Assembly (NCBI GenBank): GCA_049297395.1
Contig: JBAQUG010000497.1
Span: forward strand, 5,516-69,515
Source of the DNA: Victivallales bacterium
GTDB lineage: Bacteria; Verrucomicrobiota; Lentisphaeria; Victivallales; GWF2-50-93
Direction: 5' to 3'
Length of the DNA: 64,000 nucleotides
Part shown: positions 4,601 to 61,100 of the stretch, one piece after another
How the letters are laid out: each line of letters begins with the position of its first letter
How positions within the stretch are numbered: the first letter of the stretch is position 1
Translations under genes and position numbers: made by a program
The notes under the pieces: model-generated
What the model saw: only the letters and a program-made list of their open reading frames with translations
What the model was told of the DNA's origin: nothing
Databases searched by the model: none

Positions 4601-5810
4601 AAGACAGATTAAGGATGCGGAAAAGCTGATAAGGCAGGAGTCATCGGAAATAACGGTCCTGGCGCTGTCGCCTGTGGATCTGAAGAATGCTGAAAAGAAG
4701 ATAAATGAGGCGAAGGAACTGTTCAATGGAGGGAAATACTGGAAGACAAGACAGACTTTGCTGCATAAATATCTTATAAAGGCGTATGAGGCTCTGGGTT
4801 CGTATCCCGAAGGGCTCTTCTCCAGGAAGATGCCGGATATTCCCGGGAATGCGATGCTTCCTGAAAAGATCCTGGAAAATACGAAAGACAAGGCAAAGGC
4901 CAGAGCGGTGGATGCGGAGGAGATAACAAAAGCGCTGTCGGGAACAAAGGTGTTCATATGCGAGGATGAAACAAAATTCAGCATTGATGTCCCGTACAGG
5001 AATAAATACCGGATCTGGTATTCGGCCATTATAGACGAGTCGTTCCAGAGACCGGCTATCTTGATCGACGGGAAACCAATAGAAGAGATGGGGATGACGA
5101 AAGAACTGCTTGCGGAAAGAATCATATCCAGGCCGCTTGTCCTTGAGAAAGGAAGGAAGGAGGTGACGATAAAGAAGGGCGATAGGAAGAGCTCCCTTTT
5201 TTATTTGTTTCTTGAGCCTGTGTACAGGGATATGGAGCCTGATTCCTTCATGGCGATAGGACCGTTTCCGGCGGTGGCGGACACAAGGAACGCTGAAGAA
5301 TTCACCAAAAGGATGGATGAAATTTCAGGGCCTGAAAAGGAGCTGGATTTCACAAAGGGATACGAGGGGCTGAATAATAAGACAGTAAACTGGAGGAAGC
5401 CGGTTGGTAAAGTTGACATGAAGGGCAATATGTGCGACCCGTCTGCGTCAAATTATGTGGATTTATATACGACATTTGGCGTGATGAGCAGCATGATAGG
5501 CTATGCGGCAACCTCAATTGAAAGCCCCGATGAAAGAGACGCGGAGATTAGTTTTGGCGTTGACTATTGGGCGAAGATGTGGCTGAACGGGGAACTGATA
5601 TTGAAACCCGGGGACAGGCCGCTCGCGCCGCCTAAAAAAGGAGAAATGAAAATACAGGTGAAATTAAAGAAGGGTGAAAACATTCTTCTACTGAAGATCC
5701 ACGCAGGCAGCGCCGGCAACGGCTTCTGGCTGGCGATCAGCGATCCGGGCGACCTGAAAATATCGCCCATGCCCCGACAGGGAATGGCTGCCGTCGGAGC
5801 AGGAGCTTGA
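1677..5810 (+). CDS. Giant secreted glycoside-hydrolase-like protein, paralog A1 (jelly-roll / Ig-like / TIM-barrel-like core / beta-sandwich / helical linker / two jelly-rolls)
   Basis: The ORF is 1638-5810. AGGAG at 1666-1670 precedes ATG 1677, giving MFKKMKWTALAVGLTASLLASAAFAAEP (signal peptide). It is block-wise homologous to 16079-20272, 45911-50983 and 58171-62430, and more distantly to 24516-29294. Examples: FAYTLSLPAIQEPYLLEIEYPDNDRR, AAVSKINIYRI, NWGYEDYTIELFEKETGIKIPVGKDDPERFKKRYEYL, YFYIVNR. Confidence 0.85.
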   Translation: MFKKMKWTALAVGLTASLLASAAFAAEPVRIEKKAIEFSSTTLDAKGVEDVRKINILRGGGEAEYTFDIPETGWYELYVTAAQWATDLFLDGNFLIYTPFESGVWENSKEKGNFKVLNLHLAKGAHALKFSRPWHPGLPYMTKFSLESSKDITGMVSLNLKKDCLVFRKGEEFPATLVSSKLNEQSNLVLTVTDVEKNRELVKKELTIPAGNGNHKEDLVFPTTDEGVFDVKITDKDGRPCDRIVQYLVIDTKKDIAGVKELKKELVGTIDAGKKEPDYFSGKTRVVDAGFGPYRESGNKGRESGVEAADWFAYTLSLPAIQEPYLLEIEYPDNDRRTCPIVLCERYGNPEPALGYFTGGVYPLSDKMLMQEFYFFPRDKDPRLLFYNWDSGQRAAVSKINIYRITEGFPVLDTKVSERLYGIYQEEPLRYVNFYGGMPEGDKWANLWKPAERVGQLSNYAGINLWNPTIAVYGNMLWPGKTIPGYQIGILPPGPATLKEPIKKDVMRLMLLTCEKYKMKFVGDLHIPPTSVLMEYLDKRFGGKGTLSDDGPQKPWLTVSNKGEVGLKSTYKPYYNPVYPGVQEWASDVFREIVERYKDSPAFEGISMRFMGWCFGGFQTFASINWGYEDYTIELFEKETGIKIPVGKDDPERFKKRYEYLMAKNYDEWVNWRCKKINDYHNKLAKILTDARPDIKFHLFLCGANFGCDATQEDYEMKGWTGVLKESGIDASLYSKNPSIRIYEGRGYPDGGNRGDEKPLTVAESRDHTYSSEQIKAVEKAVGDGTVSALYFGTNHEGGYVKYEKLGYSQKEVTSNSKTIYPDSTVNPAGIHYLERFANAMADGNIVWLSDGSHGYELGQPMYLRKFLPEYRALPAIGMKPLEKTDPVALWHGKDKGKTYFYIVNRTYYPVEAEVSFAGNPQIKRMTTDEKVKTERDALKIKLEPYQIISYQDASGSTPKSISVKVPEKEKGILERQIKDAEKLIRQESSEITVLALSPVDLKNAEKKINEAKELFNGGKYWKTRQTLLHKYLIKAYEALGSYPEGLFSRKMPDIPGNAMLPEKILENTKDKAKARAVDAEEITKALSGTKVFICEDETKFSIDVPYRNKYRIWYSAIIDESFQRPAILIDGKPIEEMGMTKELLAERIISRPLVLEKGRKEVTIKKGDRKSSLFYLFLEPVYRDMEPDSFMAIGPFPAVADTRNAEEFTKRMDEISGPEKELDFTKGYEGLNNKTVNWRKPVGKVDMKGNMCDPSASNYVDLYTTFGVMSSMIGYAATSIESPDERDAEISFGVDYWAKMWLNGELILKPGDRPLAPPKKGEMKIQVKLKKGENILLLKIHAGSAGNGFWLAISDPGDLKISPMPRQGMAAVGAGA
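5250..5807 (+). other. Shared C-terminal jelly-roll module, copy in A1
   Basis: MAIGPFPAV...GPEKELDFTKGYEGLNNKTVNWRK...SPDERDAEISFGVDYWAKMWLNGE...LKKGENILLLKIHAGSAGNGFWLAISDPGD. The pattern (V.LNG...KG.N.L.V) resembles galactose-binding-domain-like / GH2 sugar-binding jelly-rolls. Confidence 0.7.
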
Positions 5811-5813
5811 ACC

Positions 5814-7484
5814 ATGAACCGAACGGGTTTAATAATTCTCGTTTTTGCCTGTCTCACAGGCCTTTGCGCCATTGCCGATGACATCCCCCGCCTGGAGTTC
5901 CAGAAGATCATCGGCGACATGCGGGGCAGGGGCATGCAGAACTTGTCGGTGACGGTCGCCGATGATGGTGCGGCCTATCTCCTCATGAGTGAAGGGCGCA
6001 TCGCCGTCTTCAATCCAGACGGGAAATATGCAAGAAGCCTGGATGTCCGGCTGACCTGGCCATTCAATCATCAATACATAAGCGCGTGGGGAAGGCGGGT
6101 ACTGCTTGGAGATTACAAGAAGGACTATCCATGGGTGTTCTCGGAACGTCGCGCCGGAGACGCACCTGGACGCTTCAGGAATCCATCCATGGCGGCGCCG
6201 GACAAGGATGGCGCACTCTACGTGGCCGACACGGGCAACAGCCGCGTCCAAGTCTTCGATGCCGGGAAGGAAAACTCTCCAGGGCACGTCATCAGCCTGA
6301 ACGCCAAGCCGTTGAGGCTCGATGTCAGGAACGGAACACTGGCGCTGCTTCTCGACGATCAGACTCTGCGCGTGCTTGATCTCAAAAACAGCCCGGACAT
6401 GGAACTGGGATGCGTGAAAACAGGTCCCGGTGCAGTGGCCGTCGCTCTCACCCCCGACCATGCGGTACTCGTTGCGTTCAACACCGGCCCCGACAGGAAT
6501 TTCCTGAAGAAATATCAAATCGACAAGGAGAGCGGCAAGCTTAAAGAATCCTCGACGATCGCCCCGTCCTATATCGATCAATGGCCGAACCTCTACCCGG
6601 TCGGGATGCCGATGACATCGGCTCCGGACGGATCCATATGGTTCGCTACATCGTATTTCGGACGCATCCTCGCCCTGGATCCCGTCACCGACAAGATCAC
6701 GGAGAAGATCAGGTCCCTGGGGAGCTATCCCCTCTGCGTGGGTTTCGGCTCCGATGGGAAACTCTTCGTGGGCGGCAGCGCCAAGTCCAAGTCAGGAGGC
6801 AGGAGAATCCAGACCATGCCGTTGGACGATCCCGCGTCCCCGGCCACCGAGTTCCCCAATGACAAAGACCTCTACAACGAGGATGGTGTCCCAGTCTGGT
6901 CGATCCTGCCGGACAAGGACGGCGGCGTCTTCGTCAGGATCATCGAGGAAGGATATCAAAAAGGCTGGCCCGCCATGACGATCAAGAAAGTCCTTGCCGA
7001 CGGAACCATGAAGCCTTTCGTGGATTTCGGACATCTGTACGCGAAACGGACGACCTTCCACCCGGCGGGAACCGTGTACTCGATGCAGTTCGACAGGAAT
7101 GGGGATATAATCCTGGCGGCATTGCCTCTGGTGGCCGTCTACAGGATCGCTCCTGACGGGAAAATAGTATGGGAAGCAGGGCTGGAGCCGCAGGGAGGGG
7201 CCGACAAAATTGAATTCGGAGCGCCACGCGCAACGGCCATCGACAGCCACGGCCGCATCTGGGTGGCCGACACTGCCAAGAACAAAGTCTTCTGCCTCTC
7301 CCCTCGGGGCAAACTGCTTTTCGAGTACGGCACGCGCGTCAACGTGGACGACATAGAGGGGAAAGGCTTCGATAATCCCAGCGCCGTCGCCATAGCCACT
7401 GTCAACGGGGCCGACTTCCTCTATGTCGGAGACTCGGGCAACCAGCGGATCGTGAAATACAGGATCATGGAAACGCAGAAGTAA
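5814..7484 (+). CDS. Secreted NHL-repeat beta-propeller protein
   Basis: Signal peptide MNRTGLIILVFACLTGLCAIADD. NHL-type repeats ALYVADTGNSRVQVFD, IWVADTAKNKVFCLSPRGK, LYVGDSGNQRIVKYRI. The ATG lies 3 nt after the A1 stop. It is homologous along its whole length to the C-terminal 603 aa of A3. Confidence 0.85.
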   Translation: MNRTGLIILVFACLTGLCAIADDIPRLEFQKIIGDMRGRGMQNLSVTVADDGAAYLLMSEGRIAVFNPDGKYARSLDVRLTWPFNHQYISAWGRRVLLGDYKKDYPWVFSERRAGDAPGRFRNPSMAAPDKDGALYVADTGNSRVQVFDAGKENSPGHVISLNAKPLRLDVRNGTLALLLDDQTLRVLDLKNSPDMELGCVKTGPGAVAVALTPDHAVLVAFNTGPDRNFLKKYQIDKESGKLKESSTIAPSYIDQWPNLYPVGMPMTSAPDGSIWFATSYFGRILALDPVTDKITEKIRSLGSYPLCVGFGSDGKLFVGGSAKSKSGGRRIQTMPLDDPASPATEFPNDKDLYNEDGVPVWSILPDKDGGVFVRIIEEGYQKGWPAMTIKKVLADGTMKPFVDFGHLYAKRTTFHPAGTVYSMQFDRNGDIILAALPLVAVYRIAPDGKIVWEAGLEPQGGADKIEFGAPRATAIDSHGRIWVADTAKNKVFCLSPRGKLLFEYGTRVNVDDIEGKGFDNPSAVAIATVNGADFLYVGDSGNQRIVKYRIMETQK

Positions 7485-7579: not shown

Positions 7580-7643
7580 AAGCAGAATGATTGAATGGGT
7601 TTTTTAAAAACGTTTTCTATAATTTTTCGAAAGGGTCTGAAAC

Positions 7644-9359: not shown

Positions 9360-9374
9360 AAGAATATTTCAGGG

Positions 9375-12311: not shown

Positions 12312-13772
12312 CTATTTCGCAAAGACCTTGTCCAGCCATCGCCATGCGCGTCGGTCGAACTCAGCCGACCAGTCGTGTCCGAGTCCCGGCAGGGCGACAA
12401 CTGTCTTGTCCTTGCTAGCAAGACGCTTGTAGACGGCCCATATGCTGGTGGGAGGCGACACCGGGTCAACCAAACCGGCATTGAACATTACAGGACAGCT
12501 GATATCAGGCGCGAAATTCATCGGATCATAGTATGCGATGCAGTGTCCGTCGACATCATCCGGCGCAGGAGGCGCGCCTCTGAGATCCATGCCGTCTGAT
12601 TTCGTCCTGTCCTTGAATTTCGGATCCCATGGCTTGTCCCATGGCTCGTCAAGGCCGTTGCATCTGGCGACCCAGTGCAGTTCCGGATAATTCGGAGAAT
12701 TCGCGATGCAGGGCACGATGGCGCTGACCCTCTTGTCCAATCCCGCGACTACTACGCTCAGGCGTCCTCCCTGGCTTCCACCTGCGGCGGCTACGCGTTT
12801 CACATCGACATCAGGCCTGGAGCAGAGATAGTCGATGGCACGGGCGGCACGCAGATACAGATCGTGGAAATAGTTCTTCTCGATCGGTTCAAAGACGAAA
12901 TTATCGTTGTATCCCGGAATCGGTTCATATTTCGGCAGATCCACATTCTGTCCATGGACCTGGACGTCGATTGCCACATAGCCATGGCGTGCGTGCTCAA
13001 GCGGGCGCGGTCTGGCGTTGAAACCCGCTCCAGGCAGGACCAGCATGGCGGGGAAAGATCCTTTGCCGACAGGTTTTGCGAGCCACGCGTATACGCGTCC
13101 GCCGTCGGGGCCCGCGAAACTGATCTTGCACGATTCCACTTCCTCGCATTTATGTCCTTCAGGATCATAGTCGGCAGGCAGGCAAGCACTCTTGAGGTTG
13201 TATTCATCAATTTCCTTGCCCTTGAAAACTTTTACTTCATCTTCAATTTTTGCATCAAGGGGAACGGTGGCGTAGTCCGCCATTGCCTTGTCCCAGAACT
13301 TGCGGAAATCCGCCGGACGTGTTTCACGGACAGGCATTTCGGAAGCCTTCCATCCGAAGACGCATATTCCATCCAATGGACGTTTCACGTTCTTGTCCGC
13401 GCTTGGGAGCCCCGTGTCGAGCAGGACCCGCAGATCATAGAATCCCGGCTGGAGATCAGTGGTGTCGATCCGGATCTTGAAACGGTTCGGAGGAAGAGCT
13501 TCGGCCTTGCCTGAACGGAACGCCTTCTGGACCATGTTGCGGTGGAGGGTCCAGGTCATGCCGACTCCGTGCAGTCCGGCCTGGCAGATGATTTCAATTT
13601 CCTTTCCGTTATCGAAAAGCAGGTCTTCCGACTGATGGCAGTAGAAGGCGAATTCGGGTTTTTGTGGTGGCGAACATTTCTCGCCATACGGCATCGCGAG
13701 ATTGAGATTCATCGCACTGGCTCCAAAATTAAGTGTGGCAACGGCGAGTGCCGTCAATATTGCTTTATTCAT
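12312..13772 (-). CDS. Secreted carbohydrate esterase family 7-like acetyl(xylan) esterase / deacetylase with N-terminal Ig-like extension
   Basis: GGSQGG nucleophile motif (AAGGSQGGRLSVV). AXE1-like blocks: LVLPGAGFNARPRP..HGYVAIDVQVHGQ, YLRAARAIDYLCSRPDVD, and C-terminal LPGLGHDW. Signal peptide MNKAILTALAVATLNFGASA. GGGGAG Shine-Dalgarno 7 nt upstream. Confidence 0.7.
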   Translation of the reverse strand: MNKAILTALAVATLNFGASAMNLNLAMPYGEKCSPPQKPEFAFYCHQSEDLLFDNGKEIEIICQAGLHGVGMTWTLHRNMVQKAFRSGKAEALPPNRFKIRIDTTDLQPGFYDLRVLLDTGLPSADKNVKRPLDGICVFGWKASEMPVRETRPADFRKFWDKAMADYATVPLDAKIEDEVKVFKGKEIDEYNLKSACLPADYDPEGHKCEEVESCKISFAGPDGGRVYAWLAKPVGKGSFPAMLVLPGAGFNARPRPLEHARHGYVAIDVQVHGQNVDLPKYEPIPGYNDNFVFEPIEKNYFHDLYLRAARAIDYLCSRPDVDVKRVAAAGGSQGGRLSVVVAGLDKRVSAIVPCIANSPNYPELHWVARCNGLDEPWDKPWDPKFKDRTKSDGMDLRGAPPAPDDVDGHCIAYYDPMNFAPDISCPVMFNAGLVDPVSPPTSIWAVYKRLASKDKTVVALPGLGHDWSAEFDRRAWRWLDKVFAK

Positions 13773-16078: not shown

Positions 16079-19000
16079 TTATTTAATATTATTGCTGATT
16101 GAAATGTCTCCGGGATCGCTGATGTAGCAGGTGAACCAGTTGGCCACCGTGCCGCCATGGGATTTCACTATCAGGATGTTCTGGCCTTTCTTAAGATGAA
16201 CCTTTGCAGGAAGCGGACGCCACCCGTTGAAGAAGCAGCCGTCATCGGCGACAAGTTCCGGTTTCCTGTCCGTCTTGAGCTGTTCGCCGTTGAGCCAGGC
16301 ATTCGCCCACCAGTCGCAGCCGATCAGTATTTCGGCATCGCGTTCATCAGGCGAGTTTATGTATGTCACCGCGTGGCAGACCCCTCTGTCCTGGACTTTC
16401 GCGCGGTAGAGGAAGCTCAATCCCGCGTTTTCGTTCATGTGCGGAATTCCGCCGCGGACTTCGTCGCTGTATTCCCATTTGAGTTTTTTCCCGCCAACGT
16501 CGAATTCAGCTTTCATGTCGGCTTTGTCCGCAGGAATATCATTTCTGGAAACTGCTTCCTTGATAAGCTCACCCTTGGCGCCGGAGTACCACTTGGTCGG
16601 GAATGGTCCGACAGTCATCCAGTTTGGAGAAGGGATAGGATGGTATTCAGGCTGGAGCGTCACTCCATAGATCCCGAACGGACTCTGCCCCTTGATTGAA
16701 AGCAGGGCTGTGCCGGCCTTCAAACTCACGACAGGGAAAACCGTCTTCTCAGGATTTCCGGGTGTCCTGCATACGGCGATCACCGGCATGTTCACGGTTC
16801 CGAGCGAGACCATCATCGCGCATGGCTTGTCGGAGCAGTGGCCTATTGAAAGCCTGTAGCGTCCGTCCACTGGAACAGGGATGTTTGCTTCGAAAATGCC
16901 ATTTTCCGCCTTGAGGATTTTTGTGAAGAGCCATTCAGGATTATATGTCGAGGAATCAATCTTCTTAATTTTTGAAGCATCCCTGAGAGTCTTCTCAAGA
17001 TCGTCGGCAGTGAGCATCAGTGCGGCTGCTATATCCGTGCCGCCGCGGTTCTCCGTCTTCAACGCGCCGATGCCGAGACGGCGGTGGAGCTGCCCCTCGG
17101 GCCATTGCGCGAGAAGGTTGAAGACCTTGATGACCGGAGTGGATGACAGGACAGTCCGCGCCCTCCACCAGTGATGCTGTTCGGCGGCATTCCACGCGTC
17201 ATTCACAGCTGACAGGAATGCTTCGCGGTCCTTTTCTGCGACGTCGTTCTTGCGCGAGCCTGAAGATATCTCATCCGCCAGCTGCTGGCAGAATGCGATG
17301 CGGTCGCGGACGAGGGATATTTTTTCAGCGGGGACTGCGATTTCAACGCCGGCTATTGCGGCTCCGCGTTTTGTTTTGAACGCCCTTATCTGGAAAGGCT
17401 TCAGGGTCATGTTGATCTTTCCTTCAGGCGCGGCAGTCTCTTCTCCTGTTCCAAGCGAGAGGATCTTGCCACAGTCTTTCAGCTGGATGCTGACAGGGAT
17501 TTCGTATGACTCGCGGTTGACGGCGTAGAAATAGAATCCGTCATCGCATTTCTTGAACCATACGGCCACCGGATCGCGGGCCGCCTCGAAAGGAATGAAG
17601 GGCTCTTTTGGAAGCTGTTCAAACTCGGCGAGCCATTCGCGGTATTCATCGGGGCGTCCGAACGTGTAGCCCATTCCGCCCTGGCGCAAGGCGCCTGAGT
17701 CCTGTTCCGCGACCGCGCATGCGAGCTTCTCCAGGGCATTGCGCCCGGCTCCTTCAGCCGCGCCGTTGTTGCCGCTGTCAGTCCTTGTGTCCTTCAGTTC
17801 CGGAAGACCGAATGCCGAAGTGTGGACCTGCTGCTGATCCTCGAAATAGGCGTTTCCAAATCCGAAGGCGCGCTCACGGCCAAACCCGAGCGCGAATTTA
17901 TCAGGGCTTGAGAGGCTGTCGCTTACTCCGGCGTCTGCAACAAGATCGCCGTGGTCGCGGCGTCCGTACGTTCCGCTTGGATAGACCGATATGCCGGGTT
18001 CGTCTGCGAGTTTCGCAAGATCCAGCCCGATCTCCAGCAGCGCACCTTTCTCTGTTCCGAAATATGAACCGAAAGTCAGATCCATTCCCTGTGCTGCATC
18101 TCCGTAGTAGGGGAGATAGAGGACGGCTTCGGGATTTGCCTTCCTGATCCTGTCGCGGATCTGGCGGTAATAGTCCAGCATGCGGCCGTTGCGCCAGGCA
18201 ATCCACTTTGGCAGCATCTCCTTTGATGTGAGGAAATCGAAGCGCTTCTCGAAACGGTCTGGCGAACCCGCCTCTCCGGGCACCTTGATTCCGCTGTCCT
18301 TCTGGAACTGCGACATGTCCCAGTCGCCATATCCCCAGTTCAGGCTGGGAAGACCGTTCCAACCCTGCCACACCCATGACATCAGGCGCAGTGACACGCC
18401 GGAAAAAGCCGGTGTATCCGCCAGCTTGTCCGACAGTTCGCCTACGATCTTGATATATTTTCCCTGGATCGCCGGATGCAGCGGATTCCAGGTTGAACAG
18501 AACCAGCTGCCTCCACCGCCCATTGAGCTTGTGCCGAGACGGCTCCAGATGTAGAGGTCCTCCATCTTCGGATCAAGCTTGTCGACGATTTCAGCATTGA
18601 ACCAGGCCTGTCCGGAAAGGTGCAGCTCCGGGATGTACTTCATTCCGAATTTCTCGCACATGAGGGCTACGATGCGCGGAGCGTCGTACGGCTGCACGAA
18701 CCAGCCCTCCAGTTCACTTGAGTTGTATGTCAGTCCCTGGTAGATGGCCTCGGTAGGGGATACGGCGTTGAAGCCGTGGTACTGGCAGAGCCGCAGGTAG
18801 CGTTCAATGGCCAGGAAGTCTTTTGCAATCGGGGTAAGCTCCTTCGGAGGTACAGCATGCTGCAGCCAGCGCGTGGGCTCCTCCATCCAGTGGATCATAA
18901 GCCTTCCTTCGGGACGCGTTGCCGGGCCTCCGACAAGACCGTCTTCAATTTTATATACGCGGATTTTCGAGGCCGCCGCCCGCATCCCGGGATTCTTGCT

Positions 19001-20272: not shown

Positions 20273-20355
20273 CGTCATAATCCCTTCGTTTCTGTTAATA
20301 TATTTTTTTAAAAACATCTTTGCTTAATCGAACCATTCAATGATGCGTCTCTTCG

Positions 20356-29343: not shown

Positions 29344-29955
29344 TTACAAATCACCAGGAACAGGATAATCCTTGCTGGTAAGATAATAATTCATATCCCA
29401 GGAAGGAAAGTTACCGTCGAAATTCCCTTCAGGATTGTCGGGACATGTGAAAAACTTTGTATGGCCGCCATTGGGCTTCAGGTTTTTCGTGATGTCCAGG
29501 CCTACAAGAGGGGCAATCTTAAACATCCAATTGTATGCTTTTGCGGTCGAACCGGGAAGATTCGGGGTCGGGGTCGTATCGGCAATATGCTCGTTCCAGT
29601 CCCCCGCATAAAGAATATTGGCGGCGTCCATCTGCCGCAGGGTGTTTTTACAGCTAATTTTCTTCGCTGTATCCTTCGCGCTTTTCAGCGCGGGCAGCAG
29701 CATTGCAGCAAGAATTGCGATGATCGCAATCACCAATAAGAGCTCAATAAGCGTAAACACTTGTTGAACTTGCCTCCGCTTCCGCTTCGGGCAGAACTGC
29801 CCGCTGGCTGCGGCTGGTACGGTCACCAGGGGTTCTATTATCCGCCGGAGCAATAAGATGAATGCAAGATGCCGGATGCAGGTCGCTAGATTAGAATGTC
29901 TGGCGTCCTGGCTCCTGGAAAAAAGCTTCTTCCCCGCCCCAGTCTTGGTATCCAT
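29344..29955 (-). CDS. Prepilin-type N-terminal methylation domain protein (short pseudopilin-like), P2; true start uncertain
   Basis: [45 protein letters not shown]. The ATG at 29955 leaves about 70 aa before the FTLIELL motif, with no closer ATG. The next gene (A5) starts 49 nt after the stop. A consensus promoter sits at 30016-30044. Confidence 0.75.
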
Positions 29956-38338: not shown

Positions 38339-39265
38339 TTATTGGTTTTCCGTGACACCTGGCATCCCCTGGGTTACAGAGGTGCGCACATCTTTAACCG
38401 ATAAGGTATCCCCATGCCCATCAGCGAAAACAACATTCGCCTTCTTCAAATGGCGCAGATCTGTCTCTGTACCGGCGTTTGTCCATATAGTTTCCCCATC
38501 ACACAGATAAAAGTAATACGAGTTATTATACCATTTAGTCTCAGAGTGGTAGAGCAAAGAGGATGGCTTTGTTAACTGGCTGCGCCGAAAGAGGCCGCGA
38601 TCAAGGAAACTGTTACCACCGGGGGCGTTCCACAGACCTGCGCCCCCCCCAGTCCATACGAACCAGACGTTAAGTCCGTAGGTCGTGGAGTTGCCGTAGT
38701 TACCCGCCGCCGACGATCCCGTCTCCGGCACCGGGATACTTATAGATTGGCAGGCCAGTGATTTCCCGTCCATTTTGTATAGTGCGTACAGACCATGGAT
38801 ATGTAAAGGATCACGCCCACTCCAAGAGGCTGGAGGCAGGTAGTCGTTGAAGTCATCTGAAAAAAATGACGAGAAAGAGAACACCTGCTTGATGTTGCTC
38901 ATGCAGCTCGCCCGCTTTGCATAATCCTGTGCGTTTTTAAGGGCAGGAAGAAGCATTGCGGCAAGAATTGCAATGATCGCTATTACTATTAATAGTTCTA
39001 TTAAAGTAAATCCCCGCCTTGCTATGCAGGTCCTCGGCTTTACCTCATCGACCAGCAGGGTCGAGAACTGTCGCGGTGCGTTGCAACGCCCGTTCCCAGC
39101 TCCCTCCTCATTAAATGCAGCATGCGGATTTGACATTTCGCTTCGCTCCATTGCTGGCAACGCCAGCCGGTCTCGCTTTGCTCGGCACCCCACACTATGC
39201 TTTCCTGTTGTTTTCCTGTCAAGGTTTATGAGACCTATTTGACCGGCAGCCCTTTCAAGATTCAT
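38339..39265 (-). CDS. Prepilin-type / DUF1559 pseudopilin-like protein with exact H-X9-DG box, P3; start uncertain (39265, 39325 or later)
   Basis: [47 protein letters not shown] has the canonical G|F cleavage context. C-terminal [14 protein letters not shown] strong AGGGAGG Shine-Dalgarno precedes ATG 39265, but that leaves about 90 aa ahead of the cleavage site. Confidence 0.8.
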
Positions 39266-39378
39266 ACATACCTCCCTTATGTAATCAGAATATAAGCCAA
39301 GTTCCATATAAAACCCATACTCCATCTATATCTTTTCTTTGCGCTTCTGTTTTCATATTGAAAGATTTACAATTTGAT

Positions 39379-48900: not shown

Positions 48901-50983
48901 TTAGGAAGTCGAAGCGCTGGCGGAATCTTTTCGGATCTCCCGCCTTGCCGGGAACCTTCATGCCCGTATCCTTTTCAAACTGCGCAACTGTCCAGTCGTC
49001 ATATCCCCAGTTCAGGCTGGGCAGGGCGTTCCATCCCTGCCACTGCCAGGAGAGCATGAGGCGCGTAGAAATTCCCGCGAATGATTCGCAGTCACCGAGG
49101 CGGTCGGCTAGTTCGCCAAAGACGGAAATGTACATGTCCTGGATTTTAGGATGCAGGGCGTTGTAGCCGGCGGCCTTCCACCCGAACGAAGTCCCGCCAT
49201 CGCGGTTACGGATGATGTATTCCTCGGCAGTCGGCGCAATATGCAGTATCGATTCCTTCTTTCCATCATTTTCCTTTTCTTCATTCCATACGCCCATGAT
49301 GTGCTTGTCAAACCAGGCCTGTCCGCTGAGATGGAATTCCGCGACATATTTGCCGTGGTATTTTTCGGCCATCAGCGCGACCACCCTTGTCATGTCGTAC
49401 GATTCGCTGAAATATCCGTCGAGTATCTTGCTGGGATAGGCGTTGTACTGGTAGACGTTCGCGGTCGGGAACATCAGGTTGGCGCCGAGATACCTGTTCC
49501 ATTGGCCCCAGCGGTCGAGAGTGGTCAGATGTTCAATGAGCCCTGCTGGTCCTTCTCCCGCCTTTGCGCCGAAGAAGCGCATCCATCTGGGTCCCTCCTC
49601 GAAATAGAATCCCATGACGCGGCCGCTGGCAGGACCTGATGGACCGTCTGGCAGCGCGGAGTCGACCCTGTCGATCTGTATCTTTGCGGCGGCCGCCCTG
49701 TATCCAGGCACCAGGTTCAGGACCGCGACTACGATTCCTTCTTTCTTAAGAGGATAGAAAAACGCCTCGTGGGTCAGCAGGGAATTTGTCAGAGGATATT
49801 GGTCTCCGGTTTCCACGCCACCGGTCAAAGTGATGCCATTTCTGCCATCGGCGCCATCGTTGGTCCAGAATCCCATGCTGCGCCGCTCGTCGTCGGGATA
49901 AGTGACTCTCAAACGGTAAAGATGGTCCGTGTCCGGCAGGTCAAACTTATAGGAGAATCCATCGGTAGCCCAGTGATCCGACGTTCCTTTCCCAGACGAT
50001 TCACGGTACTTGCCAAATGGCGATTCGACAATTCTGCTTTCGCCGTCCTTTTCAAAAAATGTCTTGTCCTTTTCGACGGACTTTCCGTTGATGGTCTGGT
50101 TCACGCAGTCGATTTCAACAACCGTAGAAGTCTTTAGTTCGGCGGCCGGCGCCGGCGGATTCTTCGTGTCGATCACGATGAACATCCCGGCCTTGAGATC
50201 GGCGGGCCGTGAAAGTTTCTCCCCGGACTTGATGAGGAGCTGGAAGACTCCCTGCTGTGGGAACTCTATTTCAACTTCCTTTGAGATCGGTTCGGCGCTT
50301 ACGGGGAACTCCACTGTTCCGCATGGAGTGATCTCCTTGGTGTTCTCATTGCGGACGACGAGATCGTAGGATGCAGGGACCGTGGTTCCGCCGGAAAACG
50401 AAATCCTGATCTTTGTGCCGGCGCGGACGACGTTGTGGCCGACACCGGTTGCGCGGATGCAGCCTGCAGCTTCACCGTCCGTGCTTCTAAGCTCCCACTT
50501 GCTCGGCAGTGCTCCTGGAAAGCCCAGGCGGCGGATCCGGAGGGTATGCTTCCCTTCCTTTAGATAGAGGTTGGCCTCCTTCCACCAGGTGCCTTTTTCC
50601 CCTTTCCGGGATGCCAGGTCACTGTCTTCCTTATGCGAATATGTCAGGAGGAAAAGAATCCTGCCATCGAGGTAGATATCCCGGCTCCAGCCTGAGACGC
50701 CGTCTTTCTCCATCAGTTCGAACCAGCCGGATTTGGCGATAGTGAAATCATATTCGACCCAGCCGCCGGCGCCAAGGATGGTTCCCGCAACCTTCTGATC
50801 CTCCATCGACGAGATCCAGCCCTTCACTCCTGGCTTGAGCAATGCTGCAGGCCATTCCAGTTCCGAACGGTCATAGCTCCAGACATCGCGGGTGATGACA
50901 GGTTTTGTCTCAGCACCCTGAGGGTATACGGCAGATGCTGAAAGGAACACTGATGCAGCGATCATCAACGCTTTTTTTATCAT
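45911..50983 (-). CDS. Giant secreted GH-like protein, paralog A3, with a C-terminal NHL beta-propeller in place of the jelly-roll module
   Basis: MIKKALMIAASVFLSASAVYPQG is the signal peptide. Family blocks: FSYKFDLPDTDHLYRLRVTYPDDERR, NWGYDDWTVAQFEKDTGMKVPGKAGDPKRFRQRFDFL, FYFYAVNR. The C-terminus ..IEWLYVADVGNQRIVKFMIK is NHL-type. The ATG lies 1 nt after the GH29 stop. Confidence 0.85.
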   Translation of the reverse strand: MIKKALMIAASVFLSASAVYPQGAETKPVITRDVWSYDRSELEWPAALLKPGVKGWISSMEDQKVAGTILGAGGWVEYDFTIAKSGWFELMEKDGVSGWSRDIYLDGRILFLLTYSHKEDSDLASRKGEKGTWWKEANLYLKEGKHTLRIRRLGFPGALPSKWELRSTDGEAAGCIRATGVGHNVVRAGTKIRISFSGGTTVPASYDLVVRNENTKEITPCGTVEFPVSAEPISKEVEIEFPQQGVFQLLIKSGEKLSRPADLKAGMFIVIDTKNPPAPAAELKTSTVVEIDCVNQTINGKSVEKDKTFFEKDGESRIVESPFGKYRESSGKGTSDHWATDGFSYKFDLPDTDHLYRLRVTYPDDERRSMGFWTNDGADGRNGITLTGGVETGDQYPLTNSLLTHEAFFYPLKKEGIVVAVLNLVPGYRAAAAKIQIDRVDSALPDGPSGPASGRVMGFYFEEGPRWMRFFGAKAGEGPAGLIEHLTTLDRWGQWNRYLGANLMFPTANVYQYNAYPSKILDGYFSESYDMTRVVALMAEKYHGKYVAEFHLSGQAWFDKHIMGVWNEEKENDGKKESILHIAPTAEEYIIRNRDGGTSFGWKAAGYNALHPKIQDMYISVFGELADRLGDCESFAGISTRLMLSWQWQGWNALPSLNWGYDDWTVAQFEKDTGMKVPGKAGDPKRFRQRFDFLTGTAREKWIGWRCDKIFNYHCRLRDRIRQAKPDAKLFLNYFGPDPKEAYSQDILGQMREIGMDYRRYAAEDGFVIVQGGGYGRRYSTPVGDAKKSDPLYAEDVKTVARLGDRGFSIYTDYYEVNDNLDWEKLGGKKGYCAFDCSSPSGINERELYAIAMADSDTSFFVNGGNGWMFGTPPVLSPFLREFRALPALKFIPFEKARDPVAVWTREVKKEEADKLKISPGFYFYAVNRLPKNVKVELSTANASKVVPAAGGEPLTLKDGKALSFELEPFMLRSFRAEGGNVSIKNCSVEVPPEISAKLLPMITFAKDLLNDLRYRRTAPELSEPDAREAMRLLNESIRAYGEGRFWQAKGNLERSSLVRVYDINGRFPSGLLERKIPHGFTDVKDAPKVDFLGLQSIIGDVRGRLSTITDLAYDTESNLWAASHEQVMLFDRDGNYLKCLSLNLAHTPDEGDPRWAQLANPRYLDTWSLRLTPDKRLAAMSWHTQPALYETNTGRLLRLEWGYGFPVPGMRSSLLAIDKWGNPYLTCPEPADMKGVYKFREDGTMSFDYSVNGTPSNKLADTTASGGAVDAKDNIYLVSADGIKVFSSSGKEIESLTSDEFKKLGKLAVFPDGSKMLATNSDGTAILCFDRGSDAKFAKSWSFNLPAKATALAISPDLGIAIGFQQETNGVVAREYFILRNGLEARRDLIPGLSSMQTQSLKGTTQLKVNGGKIYYLAHNKLMRLTPGTPDTIEIAYDPGLPNADIQSFALAPDGSIYLASNFGFYSNSRGMNVYRCAKTATGWDKPKMLNGDKPLFDNWSYSPTDLEVESDGRLILRLDDPEVKAGGPTVTIFRYSPDDGKREKLIHLGGTLPWGDYGLHLGTDGKIFIAGGGTRSVTCLSQKAEIIWQDKFDPHQGHGSTPFRQPIGITTDSSGHVWLTEPARNNFVCLDSKGKFLKSYGKFGTLDDRDGMSFRQPTGIAAIKDAKGIEWLYVADVGNQRIVKFMIK
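45914..47722 (-). other. NHL/beta-propeller region of A3 (last 603 aa), homologous to the free-standing protein 5814-7484
   Basis: LQSIIGDVRGR aligns with FQKIIGDMRGR at the start. At the end, FRQPIGITTDSSGHVWLTEPARNNFVCLDSKGKFL..FRQPTGIAA..WLYVADVGNQRIVKF aligns with FGAPRATAIDSHGRIWVADTAKNKVFCLSPRGKLL..FDNPSAVAI..FLYVGDSGNQRIVKY. Confidence 0.75.
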
Positions 50984-50984
50984 A

Positions 50985-53219
50985 TCACCGGGCTTTCATC
51001 TTTATGTCTTCCATGTCGTTTATCCGGCATGTGAACCAGTTGGCACAGCTGCCGCGATGACATTTGACGAGGAGGATATTGCTTCCTTTCCTGAGGTGTA
51101 TTTCCGCCGGGCCGGGCTTCCATCCGTTGAACTGCGAACCGTCCTCGGCCATGGCCGAAGCTGGACGGCATCCGGCGAGGGGACTGCCATTGATCCAGGC
51201 TTTCGCCCACCAGTCGCAGCCGATAAGAAGGAGAGCCTTGCATTCCTTTGAGCTTATAATTTCCGTCCTGGCATAGCATACCCCGCTGTGCCTGGAACCG
51301 CAGCGGTATGGAAAGTCGACACCAATGTCCGAATGTTCGCCTTCGCGAAGCTTGGAATGCTGCCACCTGACTTTATCTTTTCCAATTCCCTGATAGGATT
51401 TTTTCAAGTCGAATTCCTTCTCCGGGGGGAAAACCGTGGACATTGCCTTGCGAACTTCGCAGACAGGAGCCTGCGGCCCGAATGCCGTGGGGAACGGTCC
51501 GATGGTCAACCAGTTCTCTGAAGGAATGGGTTTCCAATGGGGCGTGACTTTCAGAGCGTAGATTCCGAGTTTCTCAATTGATTTTATCAACAGCCTGTGA
51601 TGTCCATGTGAAAGGTGCTTGTTCTCCAGGATTACAGTATCAGGGCATCCTCCGTAACGCAGGAGGCCCACAGGTTTCATCAGATCACCGTCAAGACGTA
51701 TCTCAATGGAAGATGCTTTTTTCGTGATCAGTCCGACGGCTATGTCGTAGACCCCGTCCGCCGGCACTGCAATATTCAAAATTGGAAACAGGCTTTCCGG
51801 CAATGAAAAAACAGTCCGTCCAGTCCAGCCCGGACACCATTTGGACGAGTCGGAGCCGACAAGGGTTCTGGAATTTTGGATGAGAATTTTAAGCGGCCTC
51901 CCCTCTATGACAGGAGGTTCGGGCGGTGAAAAACGGTCGCTGTCCTGGCCGAGTACCGGAGCCTCCCCCTTTTTCATGCGGATACCGTTCCTGGCATGGC
52001 CTAGCGTATCGGCGGGGATGCCGAAAGTCTTTGATTTAATGGAAAGAACCTCAGGTAGATTGTCATGGGAGATCTTAGGCAGGCCGCCAACATCTATTGT
52101 CATGTCCGATTCCGTTTTTATTTTCAGTTCTGAATAGCCTTCCAGGATGCAGGCTTCGAAATTCCTGGAATTGAGACCTTCCAGCCGGATGTTTTTTCCT
52201 GTGTTTCTGGAAATGAAGAAGAAGGCCTTCTGTCCTTTTGATGTTACCGGACCACAGGCGTGGTTGGCTTCGCTGTATGCGGTGCGCTGCGTGCCGTAAA
52301 TGGCGTCGCCGTTTGTCTTGAGCCATTTCCCTATTGTCTCGAGTCGTTTTGTAAATTCGGGCTGGATCGTGCCATCGGCCTTTGGGCCGACATTGAGGAG
52401 GAGGTTTCCTTCAAAGCGTGCCGCGTAGATGAGGCAGTCAATTACTTCCTGCGGGGATTTGAAATTCCTGTCCGAAGGGTTGTATCCCCAGCTTTGATTG
52501 AGGGTCATGCATGCCTCCCAGCGCTGTCCGGCCGCCGGTGCGGTGACGTGCTGCTCTGGCGTGATGAAATCCTCATGAAGACCCGAGCGATCATTGATCA
52601 ATATGTCGGGCTGTAGACGGCGGACCATTGCATTCAGCTCCCTGGAGCGCCAGTATTTCGCCTGCATTTTGTCGTCCTGCATCCCCGGTACGACTGCGCC
52701 GTCATACCAGAGCATGTCTATCCTGCCGTAATTGCCCATGATTTCACGGACCTGTGCATGGGATTCCTTCACCATTGCCGCCCAGCCCTTGGGATCGGCT
52801 GTGGGTCCAGTAAGGATTGCAGGCCATTGCCAGCTCATGACAGAATGATACAGTCCGATCCGGAGCCCGGCCCTGCGGCATGCGTCGACGAATTCCCTCA
52901 CGAAGTCGCGTCCCGCCGCAGTTTTTACGGAATTGTAGTCGCTCACCTTGCTGTCATACATTGCGAATCCGTCATGATGCCTGGTAGTGAATACCATGTA
53001 CTTCGCACCGGCCCTTACTGCGAGATCCGCCCATTCTTCGGCATTGAACTTATCGGGGGGATTGAACTGTTCTGTGAGCCTGTTGTATTCCGGCTTCGGG
53101 ATCTTCTCCTTGAACATCACCCATTCCCCGCGCCCCCATATCGAGTAGATCCCCCAGTGTACGAATATTCCGAATTTTGCTTCATTGAACCAAGACTGTC
53201 CCGTCTTTCGATTTTCCAT
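50985..53219 (-). CDS. GH29 alpha-L-fucosidase with beta-sandwich linker and the shared C-terminal jelly-roll module; no N-terminal signal peptide
   Basis: WFNEAKFGIFVHWGIYSIWGRGEWVM, MVFTTRHHDGFAMYDSKVSDYNS and IDMLWYDGA are canonical GH29 blocks. The N-terminus MENRKTGQSW lacks a hydrophobic segment. Confidence 0.85.
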   Translation of the reverse strand: MENRKTGQSWFNEAKFGIFVHWGIYSIWGRGEWVMFKEKIPKPEYNRLTEQFNPPDKFNAEEWADLAVRAGAKYMVFTTRHHDGFAMYDSKVSDYNSVKTAAGRDFVREFVDACRRAGLRIGLYHSVMSWQWPAILTGPTADPKGWAAMVKESHAQVREIMGNYGRIDMLWYDGAVVPGMQDDKMQAKYWRSRELNAMVRRLQPDILINDRSGLHEDFITPEQHVTAPAAGQRWEACMTLNQSWGYNPSDRNFKSPQEVIDCLIYAARFEGNLLLNVGPKADGTIQPEFTKRLETIGKWLKTNGDAIYGTQRTAYSEANHACGPVTSKGQKAFFFISRNTGKNIRLEGLNSRNFEACILEGYSELKIKTESDMTIDVGGLPKISHDNLPEVLSIKSKTFGIPADTLGHARNGIRMKKGEAPVLGQDSDRFSPPEPPVIEGRPLKILIQNSRTLVGSDSSKWCPGWTGRTVFSLPESLFPILNIAVPADGVYDIAVGLITKKASSIEIRLDGDLMKPVGLLRYGGCPDTVILENKHLSHGHHRLLIKSIEKLGIYALKVTPHWKPIPSENWLTIGPFPTAFGPQAPVCEVRKAMSTVFPPEKEFDLKKSYQGIGKDKVRWQHSKLREGEHSDIGVDFPYRCGSRHSGVCYARTEIISSKECKALLLIGCDWWAKAWINGSPLAGCRPASAMAEDGSQFNGWKPGPAEIHLRKGSNILLVKCHRGSCANWFTCRINDMEDIKMKAR
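50988..51512 (-). other. Shared C-terminal jelly-roll module, copy in GH29
   Basis: WLTIGPFPTAF...FPPEKEFDLKKSYQGIGKDKVRW...CKALLLIGCDWWAKAWINGS...FNGW...HLRKGSNILLVKCHRGSCANWFTCRINDMED. Confidence 0.7.
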
Positions 53220-53250: not shown

Positions 53251-53976
53251 TTAAAATTCCGCTGCACCTGCATCTTTTATAAGCCATTTCGACGCCTGGG
53301 GAAATGGATACGCTTCTGGTAGGCCAGGAAACACACTGGCTCCAAGAGCCTGGGCATGACCGTCAAAGAAAAGGGTGTTGCTTCTGCCTCCGAACCATAC
53401 GCCGTTTGATGCCTGCCTGCCGCCGTGACGAAGTGAAATATTGCCGGTAATGTAGAACTCCGTCCACTTGAGACGAAGCTGGCCTGCGTCATTGCTGTCC
53501 ATGAAATTGATTTTGGAGCTTGGCGATTTGAACTCCGAGAGCTTGCAGGTTATTCCAAGGTTGGGGGAATCATCATTGCTGTTGACGTGTGCATTCTGCC
53601 CCCAGGAAGGATGGTTTCCGTTGAAAATCCCGGTCGGATTGTTCGGGCACACGAGAAAAATCCCCGCAGGCTGCTTGTCCATCGGTTTGCAGCTCTTGGA
53701 GGAGTCGAAGCCCAGGTATTCGGCGATCCTGACATATTCAGTGCAGCCCGCCTGGCTGTAAGGAAGGGGAACGTCTTTCCTGTCGGCAATATATTCGTTC
53801 CAGTCCATTATATACATTGCCTCAGCCGCGCCAACCGACTTGAGCTTGTTGATGCAGTCGATCTGCTTGGCCAGTTCCTTTGCATTCTTCAGCGCGGGCA
53901 GCAGCATCGCCGCAAGGATTGCGATGATCGCAATAACCACAAGCAATTCGATCAGTGTGAACAGATGATTTTTCAT
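53251..53976 (-). CDS. Prepilin-type / DUF1559 pseudopilin-like protein, P4
   Basis: [48 protein letters not shown] starts at ATG 53976. The ORF-track start at 54048 is a TTG. C-terminal [13 protein letters not shown] is a DGH box. GH29 starts 31 nt after the stop. Confidence 0.85.
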
Positions 53977-54087
53977 GGCAGCACCTTGCACGTTTATTAT
54001 ACTCCTTTGCCCTGTCGGAAAACTGCCATCGTGCCCGGATGGATTCAAAACCTGAACCTGCCGCTGCCCGGCTGCGATGACAATGGC

Positions 54088-57963: not shown

Positions 57964-57983
57964 AGTTATTCCTAGACATTATT

Positions 57984-58008: not shown

Positions 58009-58023
58009 GATCTGATTGCTTAG

Positions 58024-58093: not shown

Positions 58094-58170
58094 GGGAATA
58101 CTGCCCACACAACCGCTTTTCCCGTAGATCTTATTGCTTATGTAATAATCTACCTGAAGCTTACATGCTA

Positions 58171-61100
58171 TCAAGGTTTCGGCGAAAGGGTGATTCCCTT
58201 CTCGTCGGTGATATATGCCGAGAACGCGCTGCCGCCGCTGCCGCCCTGCTGCTTCACAAGAAGCGTGTTCACACCCTTCTTGAGCTTCAGGACACCCCAG
58301 TGGACGGCGGACCAGGTTGTGAAATCCGAACCGCAGTCGGCCTTGACTTCCGGCTTTACGTTTGTGGTGATCGGCTCGCCGTTGAGGAAGGCCTTCGCCC
58401 ACCAGTCAACGCCCATATAGAAAAGCGCGGTCCTGTCTTCATTGCTGTTTATAAAGGTCACCGCATAGTTGAAGTCCGCACTTGAAGACTTGGTCCTGAC
58501 AGGCATGTCCACCCCCAGGTCCCCGATTTTTCCGACGATGCTGCTGGACGACGTGCTCCAGCGGCGTTCGCTTCCGTCAGCATCCTTGTATGTTGCCGAA
58601 AGGTCGATCTTCCCTTCAGGCGGATATTTCTGGTCCATCCCCTTTTTCACGAATCTGCCCTCAGGTCCGCGCCCGGCCATGTGAAGCCCCCAGTAGCTGG
58701 CGAAAGGTCCGACAGTGGACCATGCCATGTCCGGCATGGGGTTCAGGACAGGAAGAATCTTAAGCCCGTAGACGCCGAACGATCCGTCGCGGCGGATGGC
58801 CAGGCGGTTCTTCCCCTTCTTCAACGACACGCGCGGGAACGCCGCCGTTTCCGGCATTCCCGGCTGGATCGTGATGCACGGGGCGGCAAGGCTGACACCG
58901 TTTATGGAGGCGGTTGTGACGCCCATGCCTTCGGCAACATGCCCCAGGTGGAATATGTAGTCGCCATCGGCAGGGATGTCCAGATCGAATTCAATCGTTC
59001 CATTTTTAGATTTCAAAACTTCATGGCCGTCCCATTCCGCGTTGTAGGTGGTAGATGGAACTTTTTCAGGAACTGTTCCAGCCGCCATCTTCATGAGCCC
59101 GGCGGCGGCGGTTACGCCCTCATCGGTTTCCCAGTGATCGCCTTTCCTAGGGGAAAGGAGACCTGGGAATTTCGTTATCACCTGTCCTTCCGGCATTGCA
59201 GAGATCTTTTCGTAGACCAGCATCATCGGCGCCATCGACAAGGCGGTCCTGCTGCGCCAGACATGGCCGAGGCGGTATGCCTCCCAGGCCTGTTCGAGAT
59301 TCTTCAGATAGGCCGCGCGGAGCTTTTCGCTGACGTCATTCCTGCGAATTCCGCAGGTTATGGATTCCGCGATCTGCTGTGAGAAAGCGAGGCGTTCATG
59401 CAGCGCCTTCATGTTTTCTTCCGGCACAGTCGCCTTCGCCTCTGCAATTTTGGCGTCTTTTCCGGTCTTGAATGAACGCAGGGCGTACGGCTGGAGAGTC
59501 AGGTTGAGGCATCCTTTTTCCAGCGATGTCTTTTTCCCGTTCACGGTCGATGTCACGCTGTCTGCGCCGGTCAATGTTATTTTCACCTCAACCGGGAACC
59601 GCTCGCGGTTTACAGCGTAGAAGAAATAGTTATTAGTTATCAGTGATTGGTTATTTGTATTTTGCTGGCCACCGTCCACCGGCAACTGGTCACTCTTCCC
59701 GCTGTGCCATACCGCGACAGGGTCGCGTGCTGATTCGACGCTTTCAAATGGCACCGCCGGTATCGATTCGAATTCCGAGAACCATTCGTTCCATAGGCCG
59801 GGATCTCCGAACATGTCGGAATTCCCGCCGTCGCGCAGTATCGCCGAATCCTGTTCCGCCAGGACTACCGCGAATTTCTCAAGGCTGTTCCTGCCTGCCG
59901 CCAGGACCGCGGAACAGTAGTAGGGCATATCGCCTTTCTTGACGCCTTTGACTCCGAGCTTGTCGCAGGGCCAGTATGTCGCCAGTTCGTGATAGGTCAT
60001 GTAGGCCGCGAAGCTGCGGACCTTTCCGAAACCCGACGCCACGTTGTCAGGATCGAAGAATCCGTCGTAGATAGCCTGTTCCGAGGAAGTGGTGTTCCTT
60101 GAACCGTAGCGCGACACGGCCATAACCGCGATGCCGTCCGTCTTCTTCAGGCGATCCAGGTCGATACCCATCTCGTAGAAGCGGCTTTTCTTGCCGTCAG
60201 GGATCTTGAAACACGGATCGCAGTCGCCGTCGCCGGCAATTATGAAGTTGACATCCTTCCTTCCATCCTGGATCCGGTCGCGGATCCTGAGATGGTAGTC
60301 CATCGTCTTGTCGCTGCGCCATTTCATCCATTTGCCCTTCACGTCCTTGGACACGAGGAAGTCGAAGCGCTTTACAAAACGGTCGGGATCGTCGTTTGAA
60401 ACAGGAACCTTCACGCCGGTTTCCTTTTCAAACTGCTTCATTGTCCAGTCTCCATAGCCCCAGTGCAGTCCGGGTATGTTGAAGTCGCCCCTGAACAGCC
60501 ATGCATCTGCGCGTACGCAGATTCCTTCGAATGCCGGTGAGTCACGGAGCTTGTCGGCCAGTTCGCCCATGGCGTTCACCCATCGTGTCTGGATGGCGGG
60601 ATGGAAGGTGTTGAGATCGCATGCTGCGAATCCAGTACCCTTCATGGCGCCGGTGCAGCTTACCGACCGTACATCCTCGGGATTCTCCACTTCCTTCGGC
60701 AGGACTACCATGTTGAGGTACCACTGCGTCGGGAAGACTTCCGGCATGTAGCGCATGCCATATTTTTCGCATATCAGCGCGAGAAGCCTGGTCTCGTCGA
60801 AATCGCTGGTGAGGAAGCCGTCGAGATATTGGGACCTGTAGAACGCCTCCTGGTAGCCGACTCCGAGACCTGTTATTCCGTTGAAGCCGAAATACCGGAC
60901 AAGCCGCGCCCATCGGTCAAGTCCTATGAACGCCCTGACGGACTGCGGAGCCCCCCTGTGGGTGAGATGGATGTTGGTCAGGAACCTCCAGCTGAGGGCC
61001 TCCTCATACCAGTGGATGGCGGAACGTCCATTCTTCCATTCGACTTTTGTCGCGGGAAGCTCGCCGTCGAAGCGGTAGATGTTTATCTTCGACGCCGCGG

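Follow-up and report, generated by a model that had tools for sequence, protein, structure and literature searches.

A predicted beta-sandwich module reused on carbohydrate-active enzymes of a Victivallales bacterium and its relatives

New accessory beta-sandwich families turn up regularly on carbohydrate-active enzymes (CAZymes). The well-known ones include the jelly-rolls of the GH2-N, RhaB_D2 and BetaGal_ABD2 type, PA14 domains, and the carbohydrate-binding modules (CBMs) CBM35 and CBM6. Here we describe a module that recurs on seven proteins encoded by a 64,000-nucleotide stretch of DNA from a Victivallales bacterium (contig JBAQUG010000497.1, positions 5,516 to 69,515; hereafter the window). 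Judged by its sequence, the module is a new, unannotated family among these accessory domains. In most of its hosts it forms a cassette with an upstream domain, X, and this cassette may serve in glycan recognition.

Like the GH2-N-type jelly-rolls, the module is a predicted beta-sandwich with the signature '...(W)LNG..v ... L..G.N.L.V.v', and like them it is always found in CAZymes, cytoplasmic ones included. It differs from them in reaching no Pfam gathering score (best E 0.001; TM about 0.40-0.44), in lying at the C-terminus where the GH2-N domain is N-terminal, in having its own N-terminal extension of about 60 residues (W..IGPF, PPEKE, Y.G..GK...W), in having a CBM6/35-like domain as its partner, and in occurring on many unrelated catalytic folds. 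PA14 domains are similar in size, are beta-sandwiches (TM 0.40-0.46) and have an accessory role in glycosidases; the module core 'G.D..a..w.nG' lines up with positions 63-89 of the PA14 profile, the stretch matched by distant multi-copy relatives of the module. However, PA14 is usually inserted or N-terminal, whereas the module is C-terminal, and the calcium-binding Asp-Asp pair of lectin-type PA14 is not evident in the module, which has D-W-W at the putatively equivalent position. CBM35 and CBM6 are likewise beta-sandwiches on glycan-degrading enzymes and are often C-terminal, and CBM35 matches the module weakly (4qb1, E 0.05; 2w3j, TM 0.43-0.53). Compared with these CBMs, the module has no significant match, is about 40 residues longer, lacks a flexible linker and also occurs on enzymes without a signal peptide. 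The C-terminal domains (CTDs) of the type IX secretion system (T9SS) and dockerins resemble the module in their strict C-terminal position on many different enzymes of one organism, but they have no sequence or fold relationship to it. The module is also much larger, has cytoplasmic hosts and non-terminal or tandem copies, and was seen with no cognate machinery or scaffold.

One module on seven proteins

A first-pass annotation of the window, made from the sequence without database searches, had proposed that a single jelly-roll module is reused on seven proteins, and this was borne out. The hosts are four giant proteins (A1, A2, A4 and A5), a lyase, a GH29 fucosidase and a 672-residue protein (P672), and the copies translate into alignable segments of 148-186 residues (Table 1). 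Pairwise BLASTP among them gave E-values from 8e-50 (A2/GH29) to 7e-6 at 25-46% identity, and each copy had at least one partner at E<=1.4e-14. A hidden Markov model (HMM) of the seven copies recovered these seven alone from a six-frame translation of the whole window (E 5e-81 to 1e-49), with no eighth copy. The A5 and P672 copies are the two most divergent. The block order that had been read from the sequence was found in all copies (W..IGPF, PPEKE, Y.G..GK...W, SP..R, G.DWWA.AWLNGE, LKKG.N.LLVK, DPGD); FNGW, listed as a further block, is present in A2 and GH29 and restricted to them. Six copies form the extreme C-terminus of their host open reading frame (ORF). As had been noted, these end close to the stop codon, from which a hydrophilic tail of 6-20 residues separates the last conserved motif (DPGD or its equivalent). 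The seventh copy, in P672, is N-terminal.

The hosts fall into four independent contexts: the GHL10-like A family, in which A1 matches the Pfam GHL10 model itself, a Hepar_II_III_C lyase, the GH29 fucosidase and P672. The earlier description of the hosts as catalytically unrelated therefore holds for four contexts and not for seven, since BLAST identified A1, A2, A4 and A5 (and a further protein, A3) as paralogs of one family. The lyase corresponds to NCBI MFZ2657770.1, a record that begins at a later start codon, and the GH29 of the window is relative P0163 in our set. Other hosts among the relatives are BD-FAE esterases, pectate-lyase-like beta-helix proteins and further GHL10-like proteins, and all identified hosts are CAZymes.

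A1, A2, A4, A5, the lyase and GH29 in fact have a longer unit in common, a cassette of about 280 residues in which X precedes the module; in full-length BLAST, alignments among A1, A2, A4, the lyase and GH29 span about 300 residues. X is a separate domain of about 100 residues that abuts the module upstream in six of the seven window copies, P672 being the one without it. In the window, an HMM of X matched the six hosts with a C-terminal module (E 3e-19 to 3e-39) and them alone, and among the relatives 76 of 77 X domains are followed directly by the module. The junction between the two is short and conserved ('..P.YR.LP...W..IGPF'), with no flexible, Pro/Thr-rich linker. Matches of X to CBM6 and CBM35 (8j3x, E 0.01; CBM_35, E 2.5e-4 in relative P0043) weakly suggest a CBM6/35-like domain.

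The N-terminal copy in P672 is no oddity but part of a recurrent architecture in which the module is followed by the P672 C-domain, because the close relatives with a non-terminal module (P0010, P0015 and P0072) have the same order. In all three, the module continues into about 300 residues that are homologous to the C-terminal half of P672 (aa 371-665; E 5e-59, 2e-21 and 7e-52, respectively). P0010 resembles a fusion of an A2-type with a P672-type protein, and the A2 and P672 genes are adjacent in the window, with a 15-nt gap. The P672 C-domain had no Pfam or PDB match, and a PDB search with the whole of P672 was likewise empty.

A3 aligned with A2 and A4 only to about residue 1078 by BLAST and had no module HMM match. 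In the place of the cassette, its C-terminal region has NHL-repeat Pfam matches and resembles a separate 556-residue NHL protein of the window. Orthologs of A3 in other phyla (loci L003, L006, L016 and L018) are also without the module.

Table 1. Module copies, X domains and other features of the locus (window coordinates)
Feature	Coordinates	Strand	Remarks
Module copy A1	5250..5807	+	C-terminus of ORF 1638-5810, 1390 aa, GHL10-like; HMM E 1e-61
Module copy P672	15494..15937	-	aa 43-190 of ORF 14045-16063 (672 aa); N-terminal, follows signal peptide
Module copy A2	16082..16621	-	C-terminus of ORF 16079-20317, 1412 aa; HMM E 1.6e-76
Module copy lyase	20359..20913	-	C-terminus of heparinase II/III-like lyase, ORF 20356-24198
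Module copy A5	24519..25052	-	C-terminus of ORF 24516-29294, 1592 aa; HMM E 7.7e-55
Module copy GH29	50988..51512	-	C-terminus of GH29 alpha-L-fucosidase, ORF 50985-53219, 744 aa; no signal peptide
Module copy A4	58174..58722	-	C-terminus of ORF 58171-62430, 1419 aa; HMM E 4.4e-71
Domain X of A1	4938..5237	+	X HMM E 1.8e-33; weak CBM6 profile matches in PDB
Domain X of A2	16631..16927	-	X HMM E 2.9e-39
Domain X of lyase	20923..21216	-	X HMM E 1.2e-32
Domain X of A5	25065..25343	-	Divergent; X HMM E 3.4e-19
Domain X of GH29	51522..51824	-	X HMM E 3.1e-37
Domain X of A4	58732..59031	-	X HMM E 7.4e-38
A3	45911..50983	-	Paralog of A1/A2/A4 without cassette; negative control for the family
NHL protein	5814..7484	+	556 aa
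AXE1-like esterase	12312..13772		
GH31-like	30748..32562		
Pseudopilin-like gene	791..1552	+	N-terminal methylation motif
Pseudopilin-like gene	29344..29955	-	N-terminal methylation motif
Pseudopilin-like gene	38339..39325	-	N-terminal methylation motif
Pseudopilin-like gene	53251..54048	-	N-terminal methylation motif

Fold, family membership and distribution

An AlphaFold2 model of the GH29 module, built from a 35-sequence alignment and replacing a 7-sequence model (pLDDT 78.6), has an all-beta sandwich with two short helices (pLDDT 94, pTM 0.91), and the domain reaches the last residues of the protein. Foldseek against the PDB found nothing at E<=1e-3 for this model. The best matches (E 1.7e-3 to 2e-2, TM 0.35-0.46, probability 0.9-1.0) were GH2 N-terminal, PA14 and CBM35 domains, headed by the GH2 N-terminal domains 6d89, 6d1n and 6ncw (probability 0.99-1.0). 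The PA14-containing matches 7kmp, 2xvk, 3ac0, 6x7j and 2xjr (E 2e-3 to 2e-2, TMq 0.35-0.46) come from GH31 alpha-xylosidases, GH3 KmBglI, MpAFP and Flo/Epa adhesins, and are of the same fold class without being close. The module is thus predicted to be a folded beta-sandwich of about 175 residues in the galactose-binding-domain-like class, with the '..NG..' and 'G.N.L.V' strands and the GH2 N-terminal fold matches of that class, although no named Pfam family of the superfamily was reached at its gathering threshold.

Neither the seven copies nor 35 diverse members of the family gave a Pfam-A or NCBIfam match at the model cutoff. The only Pfam matches that recurred below threshold were RhaB_D2 (19.4 bits against a cutoff of 27; 5 of 35 members), Glyco_hydro_2_N (E 0.009; 1 of 35) and Glyco_hydro_2_N2 (E 0.036; 3 of 35), and neither CBM_35 nor CBM_6 of Pfam matched any of these sequences. 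The best PDB sequence-profile matches, at E 0.025-0.05, were the jelly-roll of GH35 beta-galactosidase and the CBM35 of Xyn30D (4qb1, E 0.05-0.09). The first-pass annotation had proposed an HMM and Foldseek comparison with known CBMs; run on Pfam, NCBIfam and the PDB, it gave no clear match to an existing CBM family, and at the level of sequence the module lies outside the families described in these three resources. A literature search found no description of the domain.

PA14 was considered as the identity of the module and rejected. PF07691 had no match at E<=1 in the seven copies or the 35 family members, and its gathering score was not reached. Among distant multi-copy relatives, P0039 scored 23.5 bits, below the cutoff, and P0129 scored 48.6 bits. 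This sole above-threshold score is a sum over the P0129 repeats, with no single stretch significant; a single repeat had no PA14 match and only a weak one to BetaGal_ABD2. The module core aligned to the jelly-roll repeats of P0129 with 93% probability in hhalign.

Across 113 domains from all host types, a set of positions is 82-100% conserved: W1 (92%), E31, W50 (100%), R91 (87%), D100 (96%), W102 (82%), N108 (99%), G143 (99%), N145 (99%) and K150 (98%). This conservation across hosts would fit a common putative binding site.

An exhaustive HMM search of 1.84 billion cluster representatives retrieved 7,659 proteins at E<=1e-3, 1,527 at E<=1e-10 and 108 at E<=1e-30; a word-indexed homolog search with module profiles gave just 5-12 short fragments. 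In 129 of 154 retrieved sequences no more than 10 residues follow the last copy, and in 141 no more than 25. Tandem copies occur in 32 of the 154 (for example P0039, P0061 and P0080), and internal or N-terminal copies in about 10. The module is internal in P0010, P0015 and P0120 and N-terminal in P672 and P0072. A scan of species-representative genomes, with an alignment of the four closest copies as query, yielded 28 loci in Victivallales, Planctomycetota (Pirellulales, Phycisphaerae), Verrucomicrobiota, Armatimonadota, Omnitrophota and Chitinivibrionia, where each of the 30 copies is followed by a verified stop codon after 0-43 residues. The strict C-terminal placement first seen in the window was thus stronger in the global survey, and random internal positions were not found. 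A stand-alone lectin form was rejected, all short relatives being fragments.

Signal peptides and inheritance of the cassette

A clear Sec signal peptide is present on six of the seven hosts in the window, the exception being the GH29, whose ATG has a stop codon two codons upstream. We compared the 115 closest homologs of the GH29 catalytic domain (P0163-P0277). All 71 homologs of at least 650 residues (about 700-770 aa) carry a C-terminal module, and 70 of them carry X, whereas the module is absent from all 41 homologs of about 390-470 aa. The two size classes are similar in identity and neither has a signal peptide, and a hydrophobic signal-like leader was found in none of the 61 module-bearing relatives with a scorable leader. 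Because the shorter homologs, at 47-53% identity, are complete without it, the cassette is an add-on with which a closely related GH29 catalytic domain can dispense. It also appears to function on cytoplasmic as well as exported proteins. The pattern would agree with recognition of a glycan motif that the polymer shares with the imported oligosaccharides, and also with a structural or oligomerisation role.

In a neighbour-joining tree, modules from different phyla cluster for the most part with others on the same type of host enzyme. Clades are clean for the GH29 and A4 copies; neither the A2-type nor the lyase-type copies form a single group, and two A2-type copies fall among the lyase-type ones. 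A recurring gene set, often in the same order, accompanies the module: A2, A3, A4, the lyase, GH29, a P672-like gene, the AXE1-like esterase, the GH31-like gene and pseudopilins. It was found in Victivallales, Planctomycetota, Phycisphaerae and Armatimonadota (loci L003, L006, L015, L016, L018 and L020). The seven copies therefore did not arise by recent shuffling in this genome, because the modules group by host type across phyla and the gene set recurs. Recent intragenomic shuffling or gene conversion was likewise rejected on the low identity of the copies, most of which group with orthologs from other phyla. Together, these results indicate that the cassette is an old and stably inherited part of each enzyme of a conserved system. 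The enzyme set would be a degradative system, possibly spread by horizontal transfer.

Possible roles and neighbouring genes

We lean, without great confidence, towards the view that the module is a cis-acting, non-catalytic part of a glycan-recognition cassette. This rests on the fold class, the restriction to CAZyme hosts of many catalytic folds, the CBM6/35-like partner X, the fact that the catalytic domain can do without the cassette, and the aromatic and charged residues conserved across hosts. The cassette would hold or align each enzyme on a structural element that the substrate shares with its oligosaccharide products, and such a shared element would explain its use on both exported enzymes and a cytoplasmic fucosidase. 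Each enzyme lineage would have inherited the cassette across Lentisphaerota, Planctomycetota, Armatimonadota and other phyla. The first-pass annotation had offered, as the more cautious of its two readings, a galactose-binding-domain-like jelly-roll with a shared carbohydrate-binding role; the fold class, the sub-threshold profile matches and the CAZyme hosts agree with this reading, the better of the two, and from these and the genomic context we infer the binding itself. Several points weigh against glycan recognition. No CBM family of known ligand was matched significantly (at best E 0.05 by PDB sequence and E 1.7e-3 by Foldseek), and the conserved NG and G.N.L.V motifs characterise the fold structurally and are no evidence of a ligand site. 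The missing linker and the likeness to enzyme-embedded domains (GH2-N; PA14 in GH3 and GH31) would also fit packing on the catalytic core, and two binding modules on a cytoplasmic GH29 would be atypical of classical CBMs.

These last points lead to the main alternative, one that we regard as unlikely: the module would be an integral part of the enzyme with a structural or active-site-shaping role, packing on the catalytic domain or mediating homo-oligomerisation, its loops setting substrate length or specificity. There is precedent for active-site shaping in the PA14 domains of GH3 KmBglI and GH31 alpha-xylosidase and in the N-terminal domain of GH2, and the top fold matches of the module are enzyme-embedded domains of this kind (6d89, 7kmp, 2xvk and 3ac0). 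The short, conserved X-module junction, the co-divergence of module and host enzyme, the presence of the module on a cytoplasmic enzyme too, and the lack of any protein consisting of a signal peptide and a module among the short relatives would all be expected. However, at least four unrelated catalytic folds carry the same cassette (a GHL10-like TIM-barrel, GH29, an (alpha/alpha)-toroid-type lyase and the P672 C-domain), with esterases and beta-helices among the hosts of relatives, and one conserved interface is unlikely to suit them all. Moreover, complete GH29 proteins whose catalytic domains are about 50% identical do without the cassette, and conservation of the polar and aromatic residues extends over all host types instead of being host-specific. 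A protein-protein assembly module with dockerin-like logic, by which the enzymes dock on NHL propellers, pseudopilins or each other in a multi-enzyme complex, seems to us quite improbable, even though the module is strongly terminal and common to most enzymes of one system, A3 has an NHL-repeat region in the place of the cassette, pseudopilin genes adjoin several orthologous loci, and in natural fusions the P672 C-domain comes straight after the module. That the GH29 hosts stay in the cytoplasm while the others are exported argues against one shared extracellular complex, and no repeated cohesin-like scaffold protein was found in the window or the 28 related loci. By fold class the module belongs with sugar-binding domains, and it gave no signal of dockerin or cohesin: dockerin (PF00404) had no Pfam match, and the module is a predicted all-beta sandwich and not the duplicated 22-residue calcium-binding helix-loop motif of dockerins. 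In addition, pseudopilins are conserved over their full length in close relatives only. That the cassette of X and module is a system-specific protein docking device tethering the enzymes, for example onto NHL propellers or pseudopilin fibres, we hold to be very doubtful; if true, bacteria of the PVC group and Armatimonadota would have a cellulosome-like organisation that relies on a new type of module.

The first-pass annotation had also raised a sorting or assembly tag. The terminal placement behind that idea is real, but the signal-peptide-less GH29 clade, the non-terminal copies, the lack of matches to tag models and the grouping by host type speak against it. A C-terminal secretion, sorting or envelope-anchoring signal in the manner of a T9SS CTD, possibly cleaved by an export or attachment machinery, would fit the near-terminal position in relatives and loci, a domain that runs to the final residues of the protein, and the Sec signal peptides of most window hosts, and yet we consider it extremely improbable. 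Sorting of the T9SS type requires a Sec signal peptide, which the GH29 cargo lacks, and this, together with the add-on nature of the cassette, is hard to reconcile with a secretion, sorting or anchoring signal. The position is not exclusively C-terminal, as N-terminal, internal and tandem copies exist. No T9SS CTD (TIGR04183/Por_Secre_tail) was found by Pfam scans of the full-length hosts (six at E<=0.01, A4 at E<=0.001) or by NCBIfam scans of the modules (E<=1). PEP-CTERM and LPXTG had no NCBIfam or Pfam match, and no hydrophobic or basic tail follows the last motif. At 175 residues plus an obligatory partner domain of 100, the unit also exceeds known sorting domains in size by far. A special function such as sorting need not be invoked for the C-terminal bias, because domains are gained in architecture evolution mostly at protein termini and the N-terminus is already occupied by a signal peptide or catalytic domain; addition would be easiest at the free end.

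If the module binds glycan, it would represent a new and widespread CBM-like family of about 1,500 cluster representatives (E<=1e-10) that Pfam, NCBIfam and the PDB all lack. The module is also the marker of a conserved multi-enzyme system (GHL10-like giants, lyase, GH29 and esterases) in Lentisphaerota, Planctomycetota, Verrucomicrobiota and Armatimonadota. With a profile of the cassette, CAZymes of these little-studied phyla would be better annotated, and there would be a handle on the target polysaccharide of the system. The advance is useful and incremental, and the conserved enzyme system found in several phyla arguably deserves more interest than the module.

Several further features of the locus were observed. 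On the minus strand, the TGA stop of GH29 and the ATG of A3 lie 1 nt apart (window 50981-50987, TGAtATG), which suggests translational coupling of the signal-peptide-less fucosidase with the signal-peptide-bearing giant A3. Right after the signal peptide, A5 and its relatives start with 'GWVVHYYGEPTFW' or 'GLVVTYYGNPTF', which looks like the beginning of a PA14-type domain; no Pfam PA14 match was obtained there at E<=0.01. The region of the lyase gene (window 20001-24000) has a G+C content of 0.60, compared with 0.48-0.58 elsewhere in the window, and may have a different origin.

One of the four pseudopilin-like genes (Table 1) has a weak, sub-threshold DUF1559 match. Such genes adjoin module-bearing enzymes in loci L002, L006, L012, L016, L018, L020 and L021, and full-length orthologs of the pseudopilin at 53251-54048 stand beside A4 orthologs. 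L020, from a Victivallales metagenome-assembled genome (MAG), and L021, from a Chitinivibrionia MAG, have apparently identical A4, pseudopilin and GH31-like stretches. Their modules are at zero distance in the tree and their pseudopilins have identical BLAST statistics, yet they are assigned to different phyla; one of the two contigs is probably mis-binned.

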